From assembly GCF_001677475.2 (NCBI RefSeq), contig NZ_CP015229.1: a stretch of DNA of 64,000 nt; one strand, given 5' to 3'. Shown here piece after piece: positions 2,365-46,773 of this stretch. Source of the DNA: Escherichia coli (GTDB lineage Bacteria; Pseudomonadota; Gammaproteobacteria; Enterobacterales; Enterobacteriaceae). The stretch's first letter is position 1; each line of letters begins with the position of its first letter. Made by a program: the position numbers and the translations under genes. The notes beneath the pieces were generated by a model, which saw only the letters and a program-made list of their open reading frames with translations, was not told the origin of the DNA and did not search any database.

Positions 2365-3042
2365 ATGAAGTGGGACTGGATTTTCTTTGATGCCGATGAA
2401 ACGCTGTTTACCTTTGACTCATTCACCGGCCTGCAGCGGATGTTTCTTGACTACAGCGTCACCTTTACCGCTGAAGATTTTCAGGACTATCAGGCCGTTA
2501 ACAAGCCACTGTGGGTGGATTATCAAAACGGCGCGATCACTTCATTACAGCTTCAGCACGGGCGGTTTGAGAGCTGGGCCGAACGGCTGAACGTCGAGCC
2601 GGGTAAACTCAACGAAGCCTTTATTAATGCGATGGCGGAAATCTGTACGCCGCTGCCGGGCGCGGTTTCTCTGCTTAACGCCATTCGTGGCAACGCCAAA
2701 ATCGGCATCATCACCAACGGCTTTAGTGCCTTGCAACAGGTGCGTCTGGAACGCACGGGCCTGCGTGATTACTTCGATTTGCTGGTGATTTCCGAAGAAG
2801 TTGGCGTTGCCAAACCGAATAAGAAAATTTTCGATTATGCGCTGGAACAGGCGGGCAATCCTGACCGTTCACGCGTGCTGATGGTTGGCGACACTGCCGA
2901 GTCCGATATTCTCGGTGGCATCAACGCCGGGCTTGCGACCTGCTGGCTGAATGCGCACAATCGCGAGCAACCAGAAGGCATCGCGCCCACCTGGACCGTT
3001 TCTTCGTTGCACGAACTGGAGCAGCTCCTGTGTAAACACTGA
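2365..3042 (+). CDS. yjjG: HAD-family pyrimidine 5'-nucleotidase
   Basis: 225-aa ORF starting [15 protein letters not shown] (HAD DxD motif); K-12 synteny. Confidence 0.88.
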
Positions 3043-3132
3043 TTGCCTCCCCCCCGTTGATGGGTAAAATAGCCGCAATTTTTCGTTTTCAACAAGCGCG
3101 GCGCGATGCCGCTTACTCAAGAAGAAAGAATT

Positions 3133-3207
3133 ATGACGTTGTCTCCTTATTTGCAAGAGGTGGCGAAGCGCCGCACTTTTGCCATTATTTCTCACCCCAA
3201 TAATTAA
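3133..3207 (+). pseudogene. prfC: Displaced 5' end of prfC (first ~21 codons) left at attL, running into phage DNA to a stop
   Basis: ATG at 3133 encodes [22 protein letters not shown] then diverges (NN*) after the att core; the full prfC is at 54307. Confidence 0.8.
3184..3197. other. attL core (ATTATTTCTCACCC), left prophage junction
   Basis: Identical 14-bp sequence recurs at 54355..54368 inside the intact prfC 5' end; flanking ~20 bp match with one mismatch. Confidence 0.75.
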
Positions 3208-8310: not shown

Positions 8311-8944
8311 TTTGCTGCTCCTCATCATATCGACCCTGCAAGGTCGGTTGGTTTCTCCACAAAACAGAGAAGAACACCTGCGGTGGCAGCCGCCCGGATG
8401 GATTGGGTTATGAGCCCGTCGTCCGGTGATGCTCTTCTCTGTTTTGTAAAAAGAGCGGTACCAGCCGGAAGCAAGTGTACAAACTGGTACCGCCAAAGCA
8501 GTGGCTGTTGTGGTGACCGGTGCTGATCTCCGGCTTGCGGTTATTTCAGACTCTCACGGGTGTTTAATTGCCCCGCCGAACAGCTCTTTTCCGCAATAGC
8601 TGCAATGTCTTTCGCGCATCAGCCTGCGCATTCACCACAACGCTGAGAGCACTTAGCCAGTTACGGCACCACACTTTGTCGCGGTTCCATAAATGCCCTC
8701 ATCGTTGCACCCTGGTCTCTTCCCAGGTGTCAAACCGAACCGCCACGCTGGTTAGGCGTCTTATCAGCATCATCATTGACTTGCACATTCCGGCTACCTG
8801 GTTTGTTTGCCCGAGCAAGGAGTGGATTGTCCCCTTTAACGTCCCCAGACCGCTAACGACGCATGTGCCATACGCCGTGTTACAACCAAATTTTGTTAGT
8901 ACCTTGTTTGTTGGTCTGGAAAGAAAGATAAAATGAAGTTGCGC

Positions 8945-10083: not shown

Positions 10084-10627
10084 GCATCACTGGAAAGTGG
10101 AAAAACAGCCTGAGTGGTACGTGAAAGCTGTCAGAAAAACTATCGCGGCGTTGCCGGGGGGTTACGCTGAAGCTGCTGAGTGGCTGGATGTAACAGAGAA
10201 CGCTTTATTCAACCGCCTTCGTGCAGATGGCGATCAGATTTTCCCGCTGGGATGGGCAATGATTTTACAGCGCGCTGCTGGCACTCACTACATTGCGGAT
10301 GCTGTCGCACAGTCTGCTGGTGGGGTGTTTGTATCGCTTCCTGAAATTGAGGAAGTAGAGAACGCCGATATAAACCAGCGCCTGCTGGAAGTCATCGAAC
10401 AAATCGGGAGTTACTCAAAGCAGATTCGTTCGGCAATCGAAGATGGGGTAGTGGAGCCACACGAGCAGACAGCAATTAATGATGAGTTGTATCTGTCGAT
10501 TTCGAAGCTCCAGGAGCATGCGGCACTGGTCTACAAAATTTTCTGCGCTCCAGAAAAGAGTGACGCCCGCGAGTGTGCAGCTCCGGGCGTCGTGGCGTTT
10601 TGTGTCTGTGGAGAAACTAACGCATGA
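10076..10627 (+). CDS. YdaT-like protein (CII-position regulator of Rac-type immunity regions)
   Basis: 183-aa ORF overlapping the cro-like gene; GTG start with SD AGGAG; position and size match racR-ydaS-ydaT arrangement. Confidence 0.55.
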   Translation: MGKHHWKVEKQPEWYVKAVRKTIAALPGGYAEAAEWLDVTENALFNRLRADGDQIFPLGWAMILQRAAGTHYIADAVAQSAGGVFVSLPEIEEVENADINQRLLEVIEQIGSYSKQIRSAIEDGVVEPHEQTAINDELYLSISKLQEHAALVYKIFCAPEKSDARECAAPGVVAFCVCGETNA

Positions 10628-10772
10628 ACAGTTTAACGGCAAATAACCGTTTGTCGCAACAGCTGGTGGTCAGCGTCTCTGAACACCTGTTGTTACGGCA
10701 TGAATGCAGATTACCAAATCACCAGGCTGTAAGTAACCACAGAGAACTTTACCTGACTGTGGGGGGCGAGTT

Positions 10773-10952
10773 GTGCAGGAACTTAACCGCTGGTTTCGTG
10801 ACGGAAGAGGGCTTTATGTTCATGTTATTCGTTGGGAACCAGAAACACAGCGCGTTATCTATCTTCGCAAAGACTACCCGCATGAGTGCTTTAGTCCTTT
10901 GTGGAAATTCAGGCGTGATTTTGTTGAGTGTGACGGACCACCAACACATTGA
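10773..10952 (+). CDS. Hypothetical 59-aa protein (GTG start), upstream of a terminator
   Basis: GTG preceded by GGGGGG; ORF MQELNRWFRDGRGLYVHVIRWEPETQRV...; below the track length cutoff; hand-translated. Confidence 0.3.
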   Translation: MQELNRWFRDGRGLYVHVIRWEPETQRVIYLRKDYPHECFSPLWKFRRDFVECDGPPTH

Positions 10953-11037
10953 TTCTGCCATTCCGGGACGTTACACTGTTCAGGCACCTTATAAAACGGG
11001 TGCCGGGCGTGGAAACCCGGAATTCACCAAAGCGCAC

Positions 11038-11060
11038 AACCGCGCTCTTGCGGTTTTTTT
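11038..11060 (+). terminator. Rho-independent terminator (tR1-like) containing a boxA-like CGCTCTT
   Basis: AACCGC-GCTCTT-GCGGTT stem followed by TTTTTTTG. Confidence 0.5.
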
Positions 11061-11229
11061 GTGTCATGAGCAGCATTACGCCCAAATTATGGTGGGGCGT
11101 GCAGGGCCAACTTCGGTTGGGCCGGGTTCTTTGGTGACCGGTATTTCCACCCCTGTACGTCTCACCACCAATAAGGTCGTGGAAAGCCTTGGTGGTGAGT
11201 TATTAAAAATCACCAAAGAGGCTGCCATC

Positions 11230-11775
11230 ATGGCTACGATCCCAACCCTCACTCAACCTGAAATTGCCATCGTTGATGGTCAGGTTGTTACTTCATCCCT
11301 GGCTGTTGCCAACTTCTTCTCCAAACGTCATGACGATGTACTGAAAAAGATCCGCACGCTTGAATGCTCAGCATCATTCACTGCCCGCAATTTTTCGGTG
11401 AGTGATTACACTGATTGCACAGGTCGCAAACTTCATTGCTACCAAATCACACGCGACGGTTTTGCGTTTCTTGCTATGGGTTTCACGGGTAAACGTGCTG
11501 CCCAGTTCAAAGAGGCATATATCAATGCCTTTAACCAGATGGAGAAACAGCTTTCAAAGCCCGCTGTACCGAGCGACGTTGCACATAACGCCAGCGTTCT
11601 CTGTTCCTACATTTCATCAATTCATCAGGTCTGGCTGCAGCAGCTTTATCCTATGTTGGCAAAAGCCGAATCTCCGCTGGCTGTTAGCTTATATGATTAT
11701 ATTAATGATGCTTCGGCGCTGGCCTGCCTCATAAATTTGTCGCTGAACCCTTCAGAGGTAAGGGGGCGCAAATGA
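11230..11775 (+). CDS. Rha-family phage regulatory protein / antirepressor-like
   Basis: C-terminal part of track ORF 10624..11775; start set at MATIPTLTQPEIAIVDGQVV with SD AAAGAGG; Rha-like N-terminus. Confidence 0.6.
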   Translation: MATIPTLTQPEIAIVDGQVVTSSLAVANFFSKRHDDVLKKIRTLECSASFTARNFSVSDYTDCTGRKLHCYQITRDGFAFLAMGFTGKRAAQFKEAYINAFNQMEKQLSKPAVPSDVAHNASVLCSYISSIHQVWLQQLYPMLAKAESPLAVSLYDYINDASALACLINLSLNPSEVRGRK

Positions 11776-11996
11776 TCCGGAATATTTTCAAACGTTTTAC
11801 CAATCAGACTTTCCGTTGTCCTCGTCCGGGTCAGTGGTACACCACGCCTGCAGGGCATGTTCTACGTGTTAGCCTGGTTGACCGTGAATGTCAGAAGGTG
11901 GTTTGTGAACCGCTGGGCCGTAATTACCGCGTCAGTATGCCGCTTATAGCCTTTTGCTCCGGAAAAAACATGAAGCATCTCGGAGGTGCAGCATGA
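11772..11996 (+). CDS. Hypothetical small phage protein (74 aa)
   Basis: ATGA overlaps with both neighbours, suggesting translational coupling. Confidence 0.4.
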   Translation: MIRNIFKRFTNQTFRCPRPGQWYTTPAGHVLRVSLVDRECQKVVCEPLGRNYRVSMPLIAFCSGKNMKHLGGAA

Positions 11997-12811
11997 GTAT
12001 GGAGCTGATGGTTAAAGCGATGAAAATTCGAGTGGGTAATCCATTGCGAAAACTGGTTCTGATCAAGCTGGCTGATAATGCCAGCGATCAGGGTGAGTGC
12101 TGGCCCAGCTACCAGCATATTGCTGACCAGTGCGAGATTAGCAAACGTTCTGTGATGAATCATATTGCGGCCCTTTGTGATTCCGGGCTGGTAAAAAAAG
12201 TCACCCGGAAAGGTGAAAAAGGTAACTCAAGTAATATCTATCTCCTTCATCTTGATGGTGCAGGAGATTCACTAGGGGGTAGTGCAAATAATTCACTATC
12301 TGGTGCAGCAAATTCACCAGGTAGTGCAGGAGTTGCACCAGGGGGTGGTGCAGGAGATTCACCCAGAACCAGTCACTCTTTTGAACCAGTCAAAGAACCA
12401 GTCAATGAACCAATAGCTGTTGGTGCATCTGCTGATGAGTCTGTGCGAGTTCGTTCAAACCGACCGGAATACTCTCCGGAGTTTGAGCAGGCATGGCTGG
12501 CATACCCCAAACGTGCTGGTGGCAATTCAAAATCTGCAGCCTTCAAAGCCTGGAAAGCCCGTTTGAATGAGGGGGTAAAACCCGAAACCATGCTGGAAGG
12601 TGTGAAACGCTACGCGGGCTGGGTATCTGCGATGGGTAACAGCGGCACACAATTTGTGAAACAGGCTGTCACGTTCTTTGGTCCGGATCGTCATTTCGAA
12701 GAATCCTGGGAAGTTCCTGCGGTATCTGCAGCCAGACGCGAGGACCCGTACTTCAAAGCCAGTTACGACAACGTGGACTACAGCCAGATCCCGGCAGGAT
12801 TCAGGGGGTAA
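11993..12811 (+). CDS. Replication initiator, O-like (N-terminal HTH)
   Basis: Start at MSMELMVKAMK with SD GGAGGTG; N-terminal winged-helix; internal iteron-like DNA repeats. Confidence 0.6.
   Translation: MSMELMVKAMKIRVGNPLRKLVLIKLADNASDQGECWPSYQHIADQCEISKRSVMNHIAALCDSGLVKKVTRKGEKGNSSNIYLLHLDGAGDSLGGSANNSLSGAANSPGSAGVAPGGGAGDSPRTSHSFEPVKEPVNEPIAVGASADESVRVRSNRPEYSPEFEQAWLAYPKRAGGNSKSAAFKAWKARLNEGVKPETMLEGVKRYAGWVSAMGNSGTQFVKQAVTFFGPDRHFEESWEVPAVSAARREDPYFKASYDNVDYSQIPAGFRG
12250..12420. repeat. Iteron-like direct repeats inside the O-like gene (putative ori)
   Basis: About five imperfect ~18-21 bp repeats (GGTGCAGGAGATTCAC-like) followed by three GAACCAGTCA repeats, analogous to lambda ori within O. 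Confidence 0.45.
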
Positions 12812-12813
12812 TC

Positions 12814-13302
12814 ATGAGTCTTTTGAATGAAGTTCAGAAATTCATTGAAGCCCATCCGGGGTGTACTTCCGGAGACATTGCAGATGCTTTTGCAGGTTAC
12901 TCACGGCAGCGCGTTCTGCAGTCAGCAAGCAAGTTACGTCAGAGTGGGCGTGTGGCTCACCGTTGTGAAGGAGATACACGCAGACATTTCCCGCGCCTGA
13001 CTGAGAGAGCGCAGGAGCCGGAACCACAACCAGTTCGTGAAACCAGACCTGTGCGCAATTTCTATGTCGGCACTAACGATCCCCGGGTAATTTTGTGCCT
13101 GACCCGCCAGGCTGAAGAACTGGAGTCCAGGGGCTTATACCGTCGTGCTGCAACCGTGTGGATGGCGGCATTCCGTGAAAGCCACTCCCAGTCAGAACGA
13201 AACAATTTTCTGGCGCGCCGTGAGCGGTGCTTACGGAAAAGCAGCAAGCGCGCTGTATCGGGTGATGAGTGGTATCTGTCAGGGAATTACGTGGGGGCTT
13301 AA
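12814..13302 (+). CDS. PerC-family (Pch-like) transcriptional activator candidate
   Basis: 162-aa ORF with C-terminal LESRGLYRRAATVWMAAF resembling the PerC signature; recalled, not searched. Confidence 0.4.
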   Translation: MSLLNEVQKFIEAHPGCTSGDIADAFAGYSRQRVLQSASKLRQSGRVAHRCEGDTRRHFPRLTERAQEPEPQPVRETRPVRNFYVGTNDPRVILCLTRQAEELESRGLYRRAATVWMAAFRESHSQSERNNFLARRERCLRKSSKRAVSGDEWYLSGNYVGA

Positions 13303-42463: not shown

Positions 42464-43963
42464 GTGACGCTCAATACTTCTCAGGTCAGTTACTATATGA
42501 CTCAGCGTAAGAAAGGTATAACTCAGCATATCTCGGCCATGAAGGCTGGTATCTCAGTCCGTTCTGGTCGTCGGATCGAAAAAGGAGAGTGGGCAAAAAA
42601 CAGTGTTCGGCACTGGCGCACACGCAAAGATCCTCTGGAAGCTGTGTGGGACAGCATGCTTGTTCCTCTGTTGAAAGAGAGGCCGGCTCTGACACCAACA
42701 ACTCTACTGGAGATGCTACAGGATAAATATCCCGGCCAGTACCCCAACAGCCTTCGAAGAACAATGCAACGGCGGGTTCGCGAATGGAAACTACAGTATG
42801 GTACAGAGCAGGAGGTCATGTTCCGCCAGCAACATCAGCCCGGCCTGCGAGGCCTGTCGGACTTTACTGAACTGAAAGGTGTAGTTGTCACCATCGCCGG
42901 TAAGTTGTTGGCGCATAAGTTGTATCACTTCCGTCTGGAATGGAGCCACTGGAGCTGGATGCGGGTTGTTCTGGGTGGTGAGAGCTTCTCTGCTCTGGCT
43001 GAAGGCCTGCAGGAAGCCCTCGGACAACTGGGCGGAGTGCCGGTAGAACATAAAACGGACAGCCTGAGGGCAGCATGGAAACAACAGGGCGAAGATGGAC
43101 GCCGCGAGCTGACTGAGCGTTATGCTACTCTCTGTCAGCACTACGGAATGCAGGGCGTACACAATAATGCCGGTCGGGGCCACGAAAATGGCTCGGTTGA
43201 AAGTGCCCACGGACATCTGAAAAGGCGTATCTGTCAGGCGCTGATACTGCGGGGCAGTAACGACTTCAGCACCATAGAAGAATATCAGGCCTTCATCACT
43301 CAGCAGGTTATGCGGCACAACCGTAACAATCAGGATCTGGTCAAGGAAGAACGTCTTCATCTGAAACCGCTGCCGCTTCGTCGCAGTGCTGACTATGATG
43401 AGCTGACTGTGAGGGTTAGTCGCAGCAGTACCATCAATGTGAAGCACGTCGTCTACAGCGTACCTTCCCGGCTTGTAGGTCAACTGTTACGGGTCAGGTT
43501 ATGGGACGATCGTCTGAGCTGTTACGTTGGCAGCAGCGAGGTCATGAGCTGCCCTCGCGTCAGACCAGAAAAAGGGAAGACGCGGGCCCGTCGTATCGAC
43601 TTCCGACATGTGATCGACAGTCTGGCAAAAAAGCCCGGTGCGTTCTGCCATGCAACGCTGAGAAATGACATCCTGCCGGACGATGAATGGCGGAGGCTGT
43701 GGCGTCGCTTATGTAATCATCTGGAGCCCGATATGGCAGGAAGGCTGATGGTACATGCCCTGAAACTGGCTGCAGGATACGACGATATCTCAGTCGTGGC
43801 AAAAGGTATGGAGCAGATGCTGAATACCCCGGGAAACGTGGATCTGCACCGGCTGATGCGCTTCCTGGGTATAAAAGAAAAGGCGTTGCCGGTAGTCAAT
43901 GTGATACAGCATAACCTGAGCAGTTATGAGCAACTACTGCGTGGCAAGGGAGGTTCGCAGTGA
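42464..43963 (+). CDS. istA: IS21-family transposase IstA
   Basis: 499-aa ORF with N-terminal HTH and DDE-type core; followed by overlapping IstB. Confidence 0.8.
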   Translation: MTLNTSQVSYYMTQRKKGITQHISAMKAGISVRSGRRIEKGEWAKNSVRHWRTRKDPLEAVWDSMLVPLLKERPALTPTTLLEMLQDKYPGQYPNSLRRTMQRRVREWKLQYGTEQEVMFRQQHQPGLRGLSDFTELKGVVVTIAGKLLAHKLYHFRLEWSHWSWMRVVLGGESFSALAEGLQEALGQLGGVPVEHKTDSLRAAWKQQGEDGRRELTERYATLCQHYGMQGVHNNAGRGHENGSVESAHGHLKRRICQALILRGSNDFSTIEEYQAFITQQVMRHNRNNQDLVKEERLHLKPLPLRRSADYDELTVRVSRSSTINVKHVVYSVPSRLVGQLLRVRLWDDRLSCYVGSSEVMSCPRVRPEKGKTRARRIDFRHVIDSLAKKPGAFCHATLRNDILPDDEWRRLWRRLCNHLEPDMAGRLMVHALKLAAGYDDISVVAKGMEQMLNTPGNVDLHRLMRFLGIKEKALPVVNVIQHNLSSYEQLLRGKGGSQ

Positions 43964-44715
43964 GCAATATCCATCACCTTGAACATAGCCTGCGTAAACT
44001 ACGCCTGACACGAGTTGGAGCTGAATGGCACGCTCTGGAAAAACGAGCGCTGGCAGAAGGCTGGACACCATCGCGCTATCTTCTGACGCTATGCAATGAA
44101 GAACTCCTGTGGCGCGAGAGTGAAAAACTGCGTCGTTATAAAAAGGAGGCCCGGTTGCCAGTTGCCAAAACGCTGAGCGAATACGACTTCAGTCAGGTGC
44201 CGGAACTGAATGGAGCTCAGTTCCGGCAACTCTGTGAAACGACAGACTGGGTTGATGCAGGAGAAAACGTTCTGCTGTTCGGAGCCAGCGGGTTGGGGAA
44301 AAGCCATCTGGCGGCAGCGATCGTGGATGGCGTAGTAGGTCAGGGCTACCGGGCCCGGTTCTACAGCGCAGGAGAGCTGTTGCAGGAACTACGTAAAGCC
44401 AGAGCTCAGTTGAAACTGAATGAGCTGCTACTGAAACTGGATCGCTACCGGGTGATAGTGGTGGATGATCTTGGCTATGTCAAACGCGATAGTGCCGAAA
44501 CGGGTGTGCTGTTCGAGTTAATAGCGCATCGCTATGAACGTGGGAGCCTGGTGATAACCAGTAACCATCCGTTCAGCATGTGGGGCAGCATCTTCGTGGA
44601 TGAGACTATGGCGGTGGCTGCGGCAGACAGGCTGATCCATCACGGATATATGTTCGAACTGAAAGGGGAAAGCTACAGGAAAAAGACAGCGAAGGCAGTA
44701 ACAAGCGCGACTTGA
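43960..44715 (+). CDS. istB: IS21-family ATP-binding helper IstB
   Basis: Walker A (LLFGASGLGKSHLA), Walker B (VVDDLGYV) and C-terminal DRLIHHG motif. Confidence 0.88.
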   Translation: MSNIHHLEHSLRKLRLTRVGAEWHALEKRALAEGWTPSRYLLTLCNEELLWRESEKLRRYKKEARLPVAKTLSEYDFSQVPELNGAQFRQLCETTDWVDAGENVLLFGASGLGKSHLAAAIVDGVVGQGYRARFYSAGELLQELRKARAQLKLNELLLKLDRYRVIVVDDLGYVKRDSAETGVLFELIAHRYERGSLVITSNHPFSMWGSIFVDETMAVAAADRLIHHGYMFELKGESYRKKTAKAVTSAT

Positions 44716-44781: not shown

Positions 44782-46773
44782 CCGGGCGATGTCATTGAAA
44801 TCTGCGATGATGACTATGCCGGTATCAGCACCGGTGGTCGCGTGCTGGCGGTGAACAGCCAGACCCGGACGCTGACGCTCGACCGTGAAATCACGCTGCC
44901 ATCCTCCGGTACCACGCTGATAAGCCTGGTTGACGGAAGTGGTAATCCGGTCAGCGTGGAGGTTCAGTCCGTCACCGACGGACTTAAGGTGAAAGTGAAC
45001 CGGGTTCCTGACGGCGTTGCAGAATACAGCGTGTGGGGGCTGAAGCTGCCGACGCTGCGCCAGCGCCTGTTCCGCTGCGTGAGTATCCGTGAGAACGACG
45101 ACGGCACGTATGCCATCACTGCCGTGCAGCATGTACCGGAAAAAGAAGCCATCGTGGATAACGGGGCGCACTTTGACGGCGACCAGAGCGGCACGGTGAA
45201 TGGTGTCACGCCGCCAGCGGTGCAGCACCTGACCGCCGAAGTCACCGCAGACAGCGGGGAATATCAGGTGCTGGCGCGCTGGGACACGCCGAAGGTGGTG
45301 AAGGGCGTGAGCTTCCTGCTCCGTCTGACCGTAACAGCGGATGACGGCAGTGAGCGGCTGGTCAGCACGGCCCGGACGACGGAAACCACATACCGCTTCA
45401 CGCAACTGGCGCTGGGGAACTACAGGCTGACAGTCCGGGCGGTAAATGCGTGGGGGCAGCAGGGCGATCCGGCGTCGGTATCGTTCCGGATTGCCGCACC
45501 GGCAGCACCGTCGAGGATTGAGCTGACGCCGGGCTATTTTCAGATAACCGCCACGCCGCATCTTGCCGTTTATGACCCGACGGTACAGTTTGAGTTCTGG
45601 TTCTCGGAAAAGCGGATTACCGATATCAGGCAGGTTGAAACCACAGCCCGCTATCTTGGTACGGCGCTGTACTGGATAGCCGCCAGTATCAATATCAAAC
45701 CGGGCCATGATTATTACTTTTATATCCGCAGTGTGAACACCGTTGGCAAATCGGCATTCGTGGAGGGCGTCGGTCGGGCGAGCGATGATGCGGAAGGTTA
45801 CCTGGATTTTTTCAAAGGCAAGATAACCGAATCCCATCTCGGTAAAGAGCTGCTGGAAAAAGTTGATTTGACGGAGGATAACGCCAGCAGACTGGATGAG
45901 TTTTCGAAAGAGTGGAAGGACGCTAACGATAAATGGAATGCCATGTGGGGCGTCAAAATTGAGCAGACCAAAGACGGCAAACATTATGTCGCGGGTATTG
46001 GCCTCAGCATGGAGGACACGGAGGAAGGCAAGCTGAGCCAGTTTCTGGTTGCCGCTAACCGTATCGCGTTTATTGACCCGGCAAACGGGAATGAAACGCC
46101 GATGTTTGTGGCGCAGGGCAACCAGATATTCATGAACGACGTGTTCCTGAAGCGCCTGACAGCCCCCACCATTACCAGCGGTGGCAGTCCTCCGGTATTT
46201 TCCCTGACATCAGACGGAAAGCTGACCGCTAAAAATGCGGATATCAGTGGTAGTGTGAATGCGAACTCAGGAACGCTCAACAATGTCACGATTAACCAGA
46301 ACTGTACGATTAAGGGCATGCTGGAGGCGACTCAGGTCAGAGGTGACTTCGTTAAAGCTGTATCCAAATCATTTCCGAAACAGGCTGGTACGTGGGGTAA
46401 CACGGAAACACCAAACGGGACGGTTACAGTCACCATCAGCGATGATCATAACTTTGACCGTCAAATCATTATTCCGCCCATTATCTTTAACGGAATAGCG
46501 TATAGCGATCCGGGAAGTGGTAATAACCCGGGAGGTACAAGATACACGGGTTATGGTTTTGAAGTTCGCAAAAACGGTGTATTAATCGCATCCAGAGAAA
46601 CTAAAGGGGCCATTCCCGGTAGCTACAGTGCGGTTATTGATATGCCGAGTGGCAGGGGAAGCGTCACTCTGGAGTTTAAGGTTTTCCATAAAGGCAATCA
46701 GTGGGCAGGTAATATCACCGACTGTACGGTGATTGTGACCAAAAAAGCCGCTTCCGGCATCAGTATTCGTTGA
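44782..46773 (+). pseudogene. J: Tail tip/host-specificity protein J, 3' fragment
   Basis: Resumes in frame ([29 protein letters not shown]...) exactly as lambda J continues after ...HVPG. Confidence 0.9.

Follow-up and report, generated by a model that had tools for sequence, protein, structure and literature searches.

The 64,000-nucleotide stretch of Escherichia coli DNA analyzed here (assembly GCF_001677475.2, contig NZ_CP015229.1; hereafter "the window") carries a lambdoid prophage between yjjG and prfC. The early genes of this prophage run in the order cI-like repressor, cro-like gene, YmfL (CII-like), Rha/Ash, an open reading frame (ORF) of 74 amino acids (aa) and a replication initiator; they continue with yfdN (PerC family), Dam methylase, RusA, KilA-N, DUF968 and Q. 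About 170 bp in the middle of the initiator gene hold five short repeats followed by a box with three copies of GAACCAGTCA. We conclude that this 170-bp stretch is very likely the replication origin of the prophage, situated in the part of the gene that codes for the initiator's linker.

The initiator belongs to phrog_270, "replication initiation protein" (1.5e-88), and is 98-100% identical to the replication proteins of phages 2H10, SfV, mEp460 and Stx2c/Stx2a. A preliminary description of the locus, made from the sequence alone, had already taken the gene for a phage replication gene, and these matches bear it out. By homology, the protein initiates prophage replication and is of the type known from SfV/ST64B/mEp460 and from "Eru6" Stx phages. 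The term "O-like" in that description holds for the role only by analogy, because the N-terminal domain is of another family: Pfam places HTH_36 (PF13730) at aa 17-67 with 43.5 bits (cutoff 25), there is a weak DnaD_N match besides, and the same search gave no match to Phage_rep_O (PF04492) at E<=0.01. The family alignment shows hardly any variation in aa 1-47, whereas aa 48-79, comprising the recognition helix and wing, are variable. The C-terminal half matches PHROGs families labeled "DnaD-like helicase loader" or "primosomal protein". Its core (aa ~158-245) is a widespread effector module of phage initiators, with 4430 cluster representatives, whose fused N-terminal partners include HTH_36, Phage_rep_O and DUF1376 among others; an AlphaFold2 (AF2) model shows a four-helix unit (pLDDT 85). 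The initiator start overlaps, in an ATGA, the stop of the 74-aa ORF (11772-11996, plus strand). That ORF is itself conserved (phrog_1153, 1.8e-45) and accompanies the initiator in relatives annotated so far, e.g. PhiR49_2, SfV and mEp460.

The repeats lie inside the initiator ORF, directly after the HTH_36 domain and before the effector domain (Table 1). All five have a 15-bp core, GTGCA-N5-T(T/G)CAC, in register and in one codon phase, and their starts are spaced by 24, 21, 21 and 24 bp. They had been described as direct repeats; each unit is itself an inverted repeat, with 5-nt arms around a 5-nt spacer, and the fourth is perfectly palindromic. The five sites are the only matches to the pattern GTGCANNNNNTKCAC in the 64 kb (0.29 expected), and none of 100 shuffles reached six matches. 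Beyond them, GAACCAGTCA occurs at 12366, 12383 and 12395 and nowhere else in the window (0.13 expected), and a degenerate fourth GAACC copy, GAACCAATAG, follows at 12407, giving a spacing of 17/12/12. The count originally given, five repeats and then three copies of GAACCAGTCA, is therefore correct, and both motifs are unique to this place. Tandem Repeats Finder (TRF) calls one 21-bp and one 12-bp array here. The region codes for aa 88-143, DGAGDSLGGSANNSLSGAANSPGSAGVAPGGGAGDSPRTSHSFEPVKEPVNEPIAV, a linker rich in Gly, Ser, Ala and Asn, in agreement with the Gly/Ser/Ala linker of the preliminary description.

Table 1. Coordinates of the initiator gene, its parts, the repeats and the following gene in the window
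Feature	Position	Strand	Sequence, evidence or remark
Replication initiator gene, 272 aa	11993..12811	+	GGAGG Shine-Dalgarno sequence 6 nt upstream; ORF list
N-terminal winged-helix DNA-binding domain, coding region (aa 1-87)	11993..12253	+	alignment and Pfam HTH_36
Repeat region, part 1	12240-12420 (both parts)		GAT-GGTGCAGGAGATTCAC-TAGGGGGT-AGTGCAAATAATTCAC-TATCT-GGTGCAGCAAATTCAC-CAGGT-AGTGCAGGAGTTGCAC-CAGGGGGT-GGTGCAGGAGATTCAC-CC
Repeat region, part 2 (after CC)			AGAACCAGTCAC-TCTTT-TGAACCAGTCAA-AGAACCAGTCAA-TGAACCAATAGC
Iteron array, five 15-bp cores	12258-12362
Iteron 1	12258..12272	none	GTGCAGGAGATTCAC
Iteron 2	12282..12296	none	GTGCAAATAATTCAC
Iteron 3	12303..12317	none	GTGCAGCAAATTCAC
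Iteron 4	12324..12338	none	GTGCAGGAGTTGCAC; perfect 5-5-5 palindrome, pattern matched on both strands
Iteron 5	12348..12362	none	GTGCAGGAGATTCAC; ends 2 nt before the AGAACC of the constant box
Constant box	12363..12417	none	CC-AGAACCAGTCAC-TCTTT-TGAACCAGTCAA-AGAACCAGTCAA-TGAACCAATAGC; candidate unwinding/helicase-entry part
C-terminal helical domain, coding region (aa ~158-245)	12464..12727	+	motif YPKRAGGN...RY...TFFGPD; no Pfam model
C-terminal tail SQIPAGFRG	12782..12808	+	8/9 residues as in the last nine of E. coli DnaT (SQIPPGFRG)
yfdN, PerC-family regulator	12814..13302	+	Pfam PerC 1.1e-09; phrog_1324 "transcriptional activator"; Prokaryotic Genome Annotation Pipeline (PGAP) annotation

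Repeats are found at the same place, right after the winged-helix domain, in every homologue that we examined. These were retrieved by protein similarity and come from phages of E. coli, Salmonella, Klebsiella, Vibrio, Psychrobacter and Pseudomonas; homologues lacking repeats, which the preliminary description had named as the observation that would count against it, were not among them. The diversity described here is that of such protein-retrieved phage records, a locus search with the N-domain alignment having given only copies that were 98-100% identical. The iteron sequences are lineage-specific, yet dyad-symmetric and of the same 5-5-5 design. ST64B and PhiR49_2 have the iteron type of the window, and Salmonella phage S107 has five related sites. 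Other types are GGGCAGGAGCTGCCC in three copies (phi24B), GTGAY-N4-TGTCAC in three (Vibrio phage D160), TGCCA-N5-TGGCA in four (a Klebsiella phage), GTGACAGAGAGTCAC in five, a GTGAC-N5-GTCAC dyad (Vibrio phage 252E42.2), GTGAC-N5-GTCAC (Psychrobacter phage Y8A) and seven GCAG...TGCAC sites (Pseudomonas phage MD8). A scan of IMG/VR contigs with the box described below added at least 10 further classes, e.g. GGTCA-N5-TGACC, GTGTA-N5-TACAC and GTAGGC-N5-GCCTAC. Copy number ranges from 1 to 8 among the sampled relatives. In two of the IMG/VR contigs (L018 and L090), the array has grown to about eight copies via duplication of a multi-repeat block, an expansion analogous to the difference between the four iterons of lambda and the six of Stx phages (PMC7466680). 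Initiators with unrelated N-domains have internal repeat arrays of their own and no GAACC box; their repeats are of the GTCAAAATCTGAC type in 569R4, the CATCGGGTCAAAATG type in mEp460_4F5 and a GGGAAAC type in PPyecE_EH1910 (initiators at 2661-3602 in L217, 2622-3602 in L218 and 1997-2890 in L010).

Repeats in a coding sequence could be kept for the DNA or for the peptide. Six independent lines, namely homologues, dyads, co-variation, frame independence, polymorphism and geometry, point to DNA elements. Across 24 distinct last-iteron cores, an average of 4.29 of the 5 arm positions are complementary, as compared with 1.25 expected at random; this symmetry favors DNA sites, because a coding repeat gives no reason for dyads. 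Further, the same DNA is read in different frames. The preliminary description had listed three GAACCAGTCA repeats, and three there are, but the first is read as (A)GA-ACC-AGT-CA(C), encoding R-T-S-H, and the other two as GAA-CCA-GTC, encoding E-P-V. In Vibrio phage 236O40-1, CCAGAACCAGTCAC is translated as P-E-P-V-T, and the GTGAA-N5-TGCAC iterons of that phage encode VVNLLH as against SENSAP in other phages of that type. Between classes, the linker peptides are unrelated (GAGDS, PMPSDGT, GGAGAA, PSDKMS), while the design of the DNA is constant.

The half-sites also vary together with the protein that would read them. Initiators with the recognition helix EISKRSVMNH have half-sites GTGCA/GTGAA; ECS(K/R)(S/T)AVRNH is paired with TGCCA, E(I/V)(G/S)RSTVKxH with GGGCA, and EIDRSTVRKH with TAGGC. 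In Mantel comparisons with the half-sites, the variable DNA-binding region gives r=0.57 (p=0.0005) and the conserved aa 1-47 give 0.32. We regard this result as supportive and not decisive, because shared descent contributes to such correlations. Polymorphism within a single class, among 34 distinct sequences of the SfV class, points the same way: 4 of 50 positions vary in the half-sites, 4 of 25 in the spacers, 12 of 30 in the inter-iteron linkers and 46 of 54 in the flanks. The half-sites are thus the least polymorphic part (Fisher p=0.001 versus the inter-iteron linkers).

It could be argued that the repeats are a side effect of a flexible linker of low complexity whose length changes through replication slippage, their DNA being functionless. 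They are in frame, with all periods multiples of three; they encode a Gly/Ser/Ala/Pro-rich and presumably disordered segment; and their number differs between close relatives. We nevertheless consider this explanation very improbable. It must contend with a dyad symmetry that holds in the 24 distinct cores, with identical DNA motifs that are translated in different frames into unrelated peptides, and with peptides that differ wholly between lineages in which the DNA architecture is kept. It must also account for half-sites that are more conserved than the flanking codons of a folded domain, and for a fixed gap of 2 nt between iterons and box. Taken together, the frame independence, the dyads, the co-variation with the recognition helix and the conserved half-sites argue for initiator-binding iterons rather than a repeated peptide.

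The segment beyond the iterons, which we call the constant box, has a GC content of 41%; the gene has 50% and the iterons 52%. In an alignment of 16 representatives anchored at the box, the deepest GC dip within +/-420 nt falls inside it, with the minimum at about +30 from its start. The 28-mer AGAACCAGTCACTCTTTTGAACCAGTCA, which starts at 12365 and adjoins the last iteron, is found exactly in at least 120 IMG/VR contigs with many iteron classes, although this invariance is circular, because the contigs were selected by scanning with that very 28-nt box. In the protein-retrieved homologues from E. coli, Salmonella, Klebsiella and Vibrio phages, the box differs at 0-3 nt (at 3 of 28 in phi24B), and the gap from the end of the last iteron to AGAACC is 2 nt in the box-containing relatives examined. 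In more distant phages, the box decays to three or four GAACC units with a period of 11-14 bp, and degenerate arrays of this kind, read in other frames, are present in Psychrobacter (GAACCTATCAAT, three times), Pseudomonas and Vibrio phages. Pseudomonas phage MD8 has AGAACCGTAAT-AGAACCTACAAGG-GAACCATCAGGA-GAACCGTCACC. In Vibrio phage 252E42.2, the source of the most distant homologue (29% identity), the short repeat is another one, TCCTAACA, and its period is again 12 bp. A plasmid of the marine gammaproteobacterium Microbulbifer sp. MI-G (43.5 kb, NZ_CP098024.1) matches the last iterons and the box only (8669-8767, 81.8% identity, query 323-421); the match sits inside a gene for a helix-turn-helix (HTH) domain protein and widens the range of the box past enteric and Vibrio phages.

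By position and repeat structure, the GAACC box resembles the tandem 13-mers of the oriC and RK2 unwinding elements. We propose that it could serve as the unwinding element here, a proposal that we regard as evenly balanced. An alternative explanation for its near-invariance is a conserved peptide, RTSHSFEPVxEP, and/or a recombination junction between the N- and C-terminal modules. The box lies at the exact boundary where the N-domain/iteron units join at least 10 types of C-terminal domain; in the SfV class, the sequence to its right diverges abruptly; and its peptide is kept wherever the frame is shared. Against a peptide stand the rare codons AGA and ATA of the box, which are retained even in the GC-rich Pseudomonas phage, the 12-bp period of GAACC units separated by varying sequence, the persistence of the motif in another frame, and the different peptides that the first and later copies encode within one gene. 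A peptide or junction role has some plausibility, since the box marks the exact point of module exchange, but we judge it unlikely to be what the box is for in place of unwinding.

We therefore return to the origin as a whole, and hold with good confidence that the repeats are the initiator-binding iterons of a phage replication origin. The geometry is apt: the iterons are two helical turns apart, and a mildly AT-rich box with GAACC intervals of about 12 bp lies beyond them. In the mechanism we envisage, dimers of the N-terminal winged-helix domain (aa 1-87) would bind the five iterons and form a nucleoprotein complex akin to the O-some. The adjacent constant box would then melt, furnishing a helicase entry site, and the C-terminal domain and tail would bring in the replicative helicase. 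Because the prophage encodes no helicase or loader, the initiator would have to recruit DnaB-DnaC of the host. The best candidate for this contact is the DnaT-like C-terminal peptide, the speculative step of the scheme. Binding specificity would reside in an exchangeable unit of recognition helix and iterons; the constant box and the helicase-recruiting C-terminus would be separate modules that recombine independently.

Dyads of this kind could instead bind the initiator or another regulator for autoregulation, roadblock control of transcription or a partition-like role, with the true origin elsewhere. Dimeric winged-helix proteins on inverted repeats are typical of operators, plasmid Rep proteins repress their own genes by binding inverted repeats as dimers, and the case for an origin is drawn from sequence rather than from a measurement of replication. 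However, the sites are found some 265 bp into the coding sequence rather than at a promoter, and their arrangement is the established one of ori-lambda and of the origins of Stx phages (PMC7466680). Across five helicase/loader contexts, the arrays stay with the initiator, and the 64-kb window has no other cluster of the iteron motif. A purely regulatory role is, to our minds, quite unlikely.

Several observations weigh against the origin we propose. Our literature search found no experiment that shows binding, unwinding or autonomous replication in this family. Co-variation of linked features is to be expected, to some degree, from shared descent alone. Scans of the origin, the post-iteron box included, for DnaA boxes, the integration host factor (IHF) consensus and GATC gave nothing, and the post-iteron segment is 59% AT, far below the AT-rich region of lambda. 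Because the IMG/VR loci were chosen by their box, independent support for its constancy comes only from the ~13 protein-retrieved homologues. Salmonella phage SI8 has a single iteron, GGGCAGGAGCTGACC, beside its box (2501-3133 of its record); this P22-like phage has a primase-helicase gene after the initiator, and its origin may be minimal or degenerate. Finally, the prophage may be defective through an insertion sequence (IS) discussed below, which has no bearing on the sequence of the origin. A full-text search for the motif strings returned unrelated primers only; Weigel & Seitz 2006 and the SfV genome paper (Allison et al. 2002) lie outside the literature covered, and the iterons may already be tabulated there.

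A 44.6-kb circular PLSDB record, NZ_CP148393.1, filed as a "plasmid" of an E. coli isolate, is a complete lambdoid phage genome with the same lone initiator and yfdN. It is consistent with extrachromosomal replication or spontaneous induction. Similar records of 33-39 kb exist.

The company that the N-domain/iteron/box unit keeps is informative. The C-terminal domain types to which the unit is joined track the gene downstream. This gene is of the lambda-P family in the Klebsiella phage (Pfam Phage_lambda_P, 1.8e-58) and in Pseudomonas phage MD8 (4.5e-31); DnaC-like and DnaB genes follow in PhiR49_2, a DnaB-like gene in Vibrio phage 381E49-1, and a Toprim-DnaB primase-helicase in SI8, S107 and phi24B. 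Because relatives place helicase or loader genes after it, the unit belongs to bona fide replication modules. The initiators of the window, SfV and ST64B are not followed by a helicase or loader gene; yfdN, not itself a helicase loader, fills the position instead.

The preliminary description had likewise found no helicase-loader gene after the initiator, and wider searches agree. The PGAP annotation of the near-identical prophage of E. coli M114 contains no helicase or loader. Because the late region of M114 differs by indels and IS, the window was also searched directly: tblastn with 20 helicase, loader and partner queries and with host DnaT gave one weak hit only, at 44.1-44.5 kb. This DnaC/DnaB-type hit was rejected as a hidden loader, being the IstB of an IS21-family element (42464-44715) and the sole DnaC-like sequence in the window. 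The prophage thus has neither helicase nor loader, as in the class of initiator-only ("solo") phage replication modules that was reportedly recognized by Weigel and Seitz in 2006.

How such an initiator might reach the host helicase is suggested by its last residues. SQIPAGFRG and its DnaT counterpart SQIPPGFRG stand at the extreme C-terminus in both proteins, and the DNA of the tail is identical to dnaT at 25 of 30 nt, the differences being mostly synonymous. The motif is kept in DnaT fragments of Salmonella (TIPPGFRG) and Citrobacter (EIPKGFRG), in which the preceding linker varies. In the prophage, the nine residues belong to a module of about 31 aa starting at about 12716, which also ends the otherwise different initiators of 569R4 and mEp460_4F5; there, too, yfdN comes next and no helicase. 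The tail is present in 121 of 192 sampled initiators, and none of the 121 is followed by a DnaC-like or helicase gene. In contrast, 24 of the 71 tail-less initiators precede a gene with a DnaC-type or helicase-type Walker A motif, and most of the remainder precede a partner of the lambda-P-family type; the association may partly be linkage, because the tail and yfdN are physically adjacent. PhiR49_2 and PPyecE have the core of the C-terminal domain in common, other tails, and DnaC-like and DnaB-like genes. A search of protein homologues with the C-terminal domain or the DnaT tail returned almost only short fragments, and a literature search for "PGFRG" nothing relevant.

DnaT acts at abandoned forks with PriA and PriB; its route of DnaB-DnaC recruitment is unknown, and the function of its residues 154-179 has not been established (PMC4132743, PMC13377028). 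The rest of the initiator is unrelated to DnaT. That the tail mediates recruitment of the host helicase is a tentative suggestion, and we offer the likeness as a lead, not as a result, on how a solo initiator might gain access to the loading machinery of its host. Wider in its reach is a joint hypothesis: a very large family of phage origins might have the GAACC box as its common unwinding/helicase-entry element, with specificity set only by exchangeable iteron/helix pairs, and solo initiators might recruit DnaB-DnaC, or another primosome partner, through a short peptide that copies the conserved tail of DnaT. Doubtful as this is, a phage initiator would, if it were true, point to the function of that tail.

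The preliminary description compared the locus to the lambda origin within gene O. At ori-lambda, the origin lies mid-gene, initiator dimers bind the dyad iterons, and a lower-GC segment lies beside them (PMC7466680). The comparison stands for the location of the window array, the tandem dyads about two helical turns apart (as also in the six-iteron origins of 933W and P27), the coding of a linker between the DNA-binding N-domain and the helicase-recruiting C-domain, and the lower-GC segment that follows. It fails for the family of the N-domain (HTH_36, not Phage_rep_O). In AT-richness it is weak, the window having a GAACC 12-mer array, the deepest local GC dip, in place of a strongly AT-rich tract. 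In addition, the iterons are unrelated to the TCCCTC...GAGGGA type of lambda, and the prophage has no P gene.

In plasmid origins and oriC, tandem 12-13-mers beside the initiator sites are where melting occurs. The window resembles the iteron plasmids (RK2, F, R6K, pPS10) and the oriC unwinding element in that initiator sites adjoin such short tandem repeats. However, the iterons of those plasmids are direct repeats that are bound by monomers and usually accompanied by DnaA boxes, whereas those of the window are inverted repeats, and the 1 kb around them (11900-12900) has no exact DnaA box; two sites with one mismatch both lie outside the repeat region. Rep and DnaA proteins bind one strand of such tandem unwinding repeats (PMC4081077).

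Over 1701 nt, the window shares 98.3% identity with Stx2a_WGPS2 (AP012537), the reference phage of the Eru6 type. That type is defined by a Rha-family gene and then an HTH_36 gene downstream of cI (Fagerlund et al. 2022, PMC8951638), and the window has, by Pfam, a Rha/Ash protein and then an HTH_36 protein. Phi24B, with the gene arrangement described for Eru5 (an HTH_36 protein, then a primase-helicase), has the N-domain, an iteron array and a box variant in common with the window. The Eru classes are based on gene content only and are termed "non-lambdoid"; the authors state that there is no knowledge about the replication proteins of Eru phages and do not mention iterons (PMC8951638). Our comparison indicates a lambda-style origin design in Eru6 and Eru5 regions alike. 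Two aspects are possibly new, namely the constant box shared across genera and the DnaT-like tail.

Other features of the prophage deserve mention. The IS21-family element (42464-44715, plus strand) comprises a 499-aa transposase-like ORF and a 251-aa IstB (Pfam IstB_IS21, 9.3e-62). It sits directly upstream of a J-like tail ORF (44842-46773) and is absent from the near-identical M114 prophage; the prophage may be tail-defective, because the element adjoins this ORF and is absent in M114. The annotated Rha/Ash ORF (383 aa, 10624-11775) contains two Rfam matches above gathering thresholds, the Hfq-binding RNA isrK (10984-11060, plus strand, 67.9 bits) and C4 antisense RNA (11085-11172, plus strand, 83.6 bits), and a sub-threshold match to the c4-a1b1 target (region 10971-11172). 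Because the isrK and C4 matches lie inside it, the 5' third of this ORF is probably an antisense-RNA immunity cassette of the P1/P7 type, with the true start of Ash/Rha further downstream. At the iteron locus, Rfam gave no credible match (mir-875, at E=0.15, is spurious), and an RNA element was dropped from consideration there.

The module described here is very common in E. coli. The 1.7-kb region is 100% identical to that of M114, whose early region equals that of the window, and about 98% identical to SfV, mEp460, 1720a-02 and Stx2c/Stx2a phages. Among 5426 complete E. coli genomes, 2728 have a match to it, and in 837 of these the match covers 80% or more of the query. It is also present in Stx2-converting phages classed as "non-lambdoid" Eru6, and effective toxin production reportedly requires the replication of Stx phages (PMC7466680). 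A located, lambda-like origin would provide a handle on these phages: mini-replicons could be built, incompatibility typed by iteron class, and targets defined for blocking replication. The family is also a natural experiment, in which many pairs of iteron and recognition helix on a constant scaffold may reveal how winged-helix proteins change specificity. Lastly, the DnaT-like tail on helicase-less initiators makes the recruitment of DnaB-DnaC with neither DnaA nor a phage loader directly testable.

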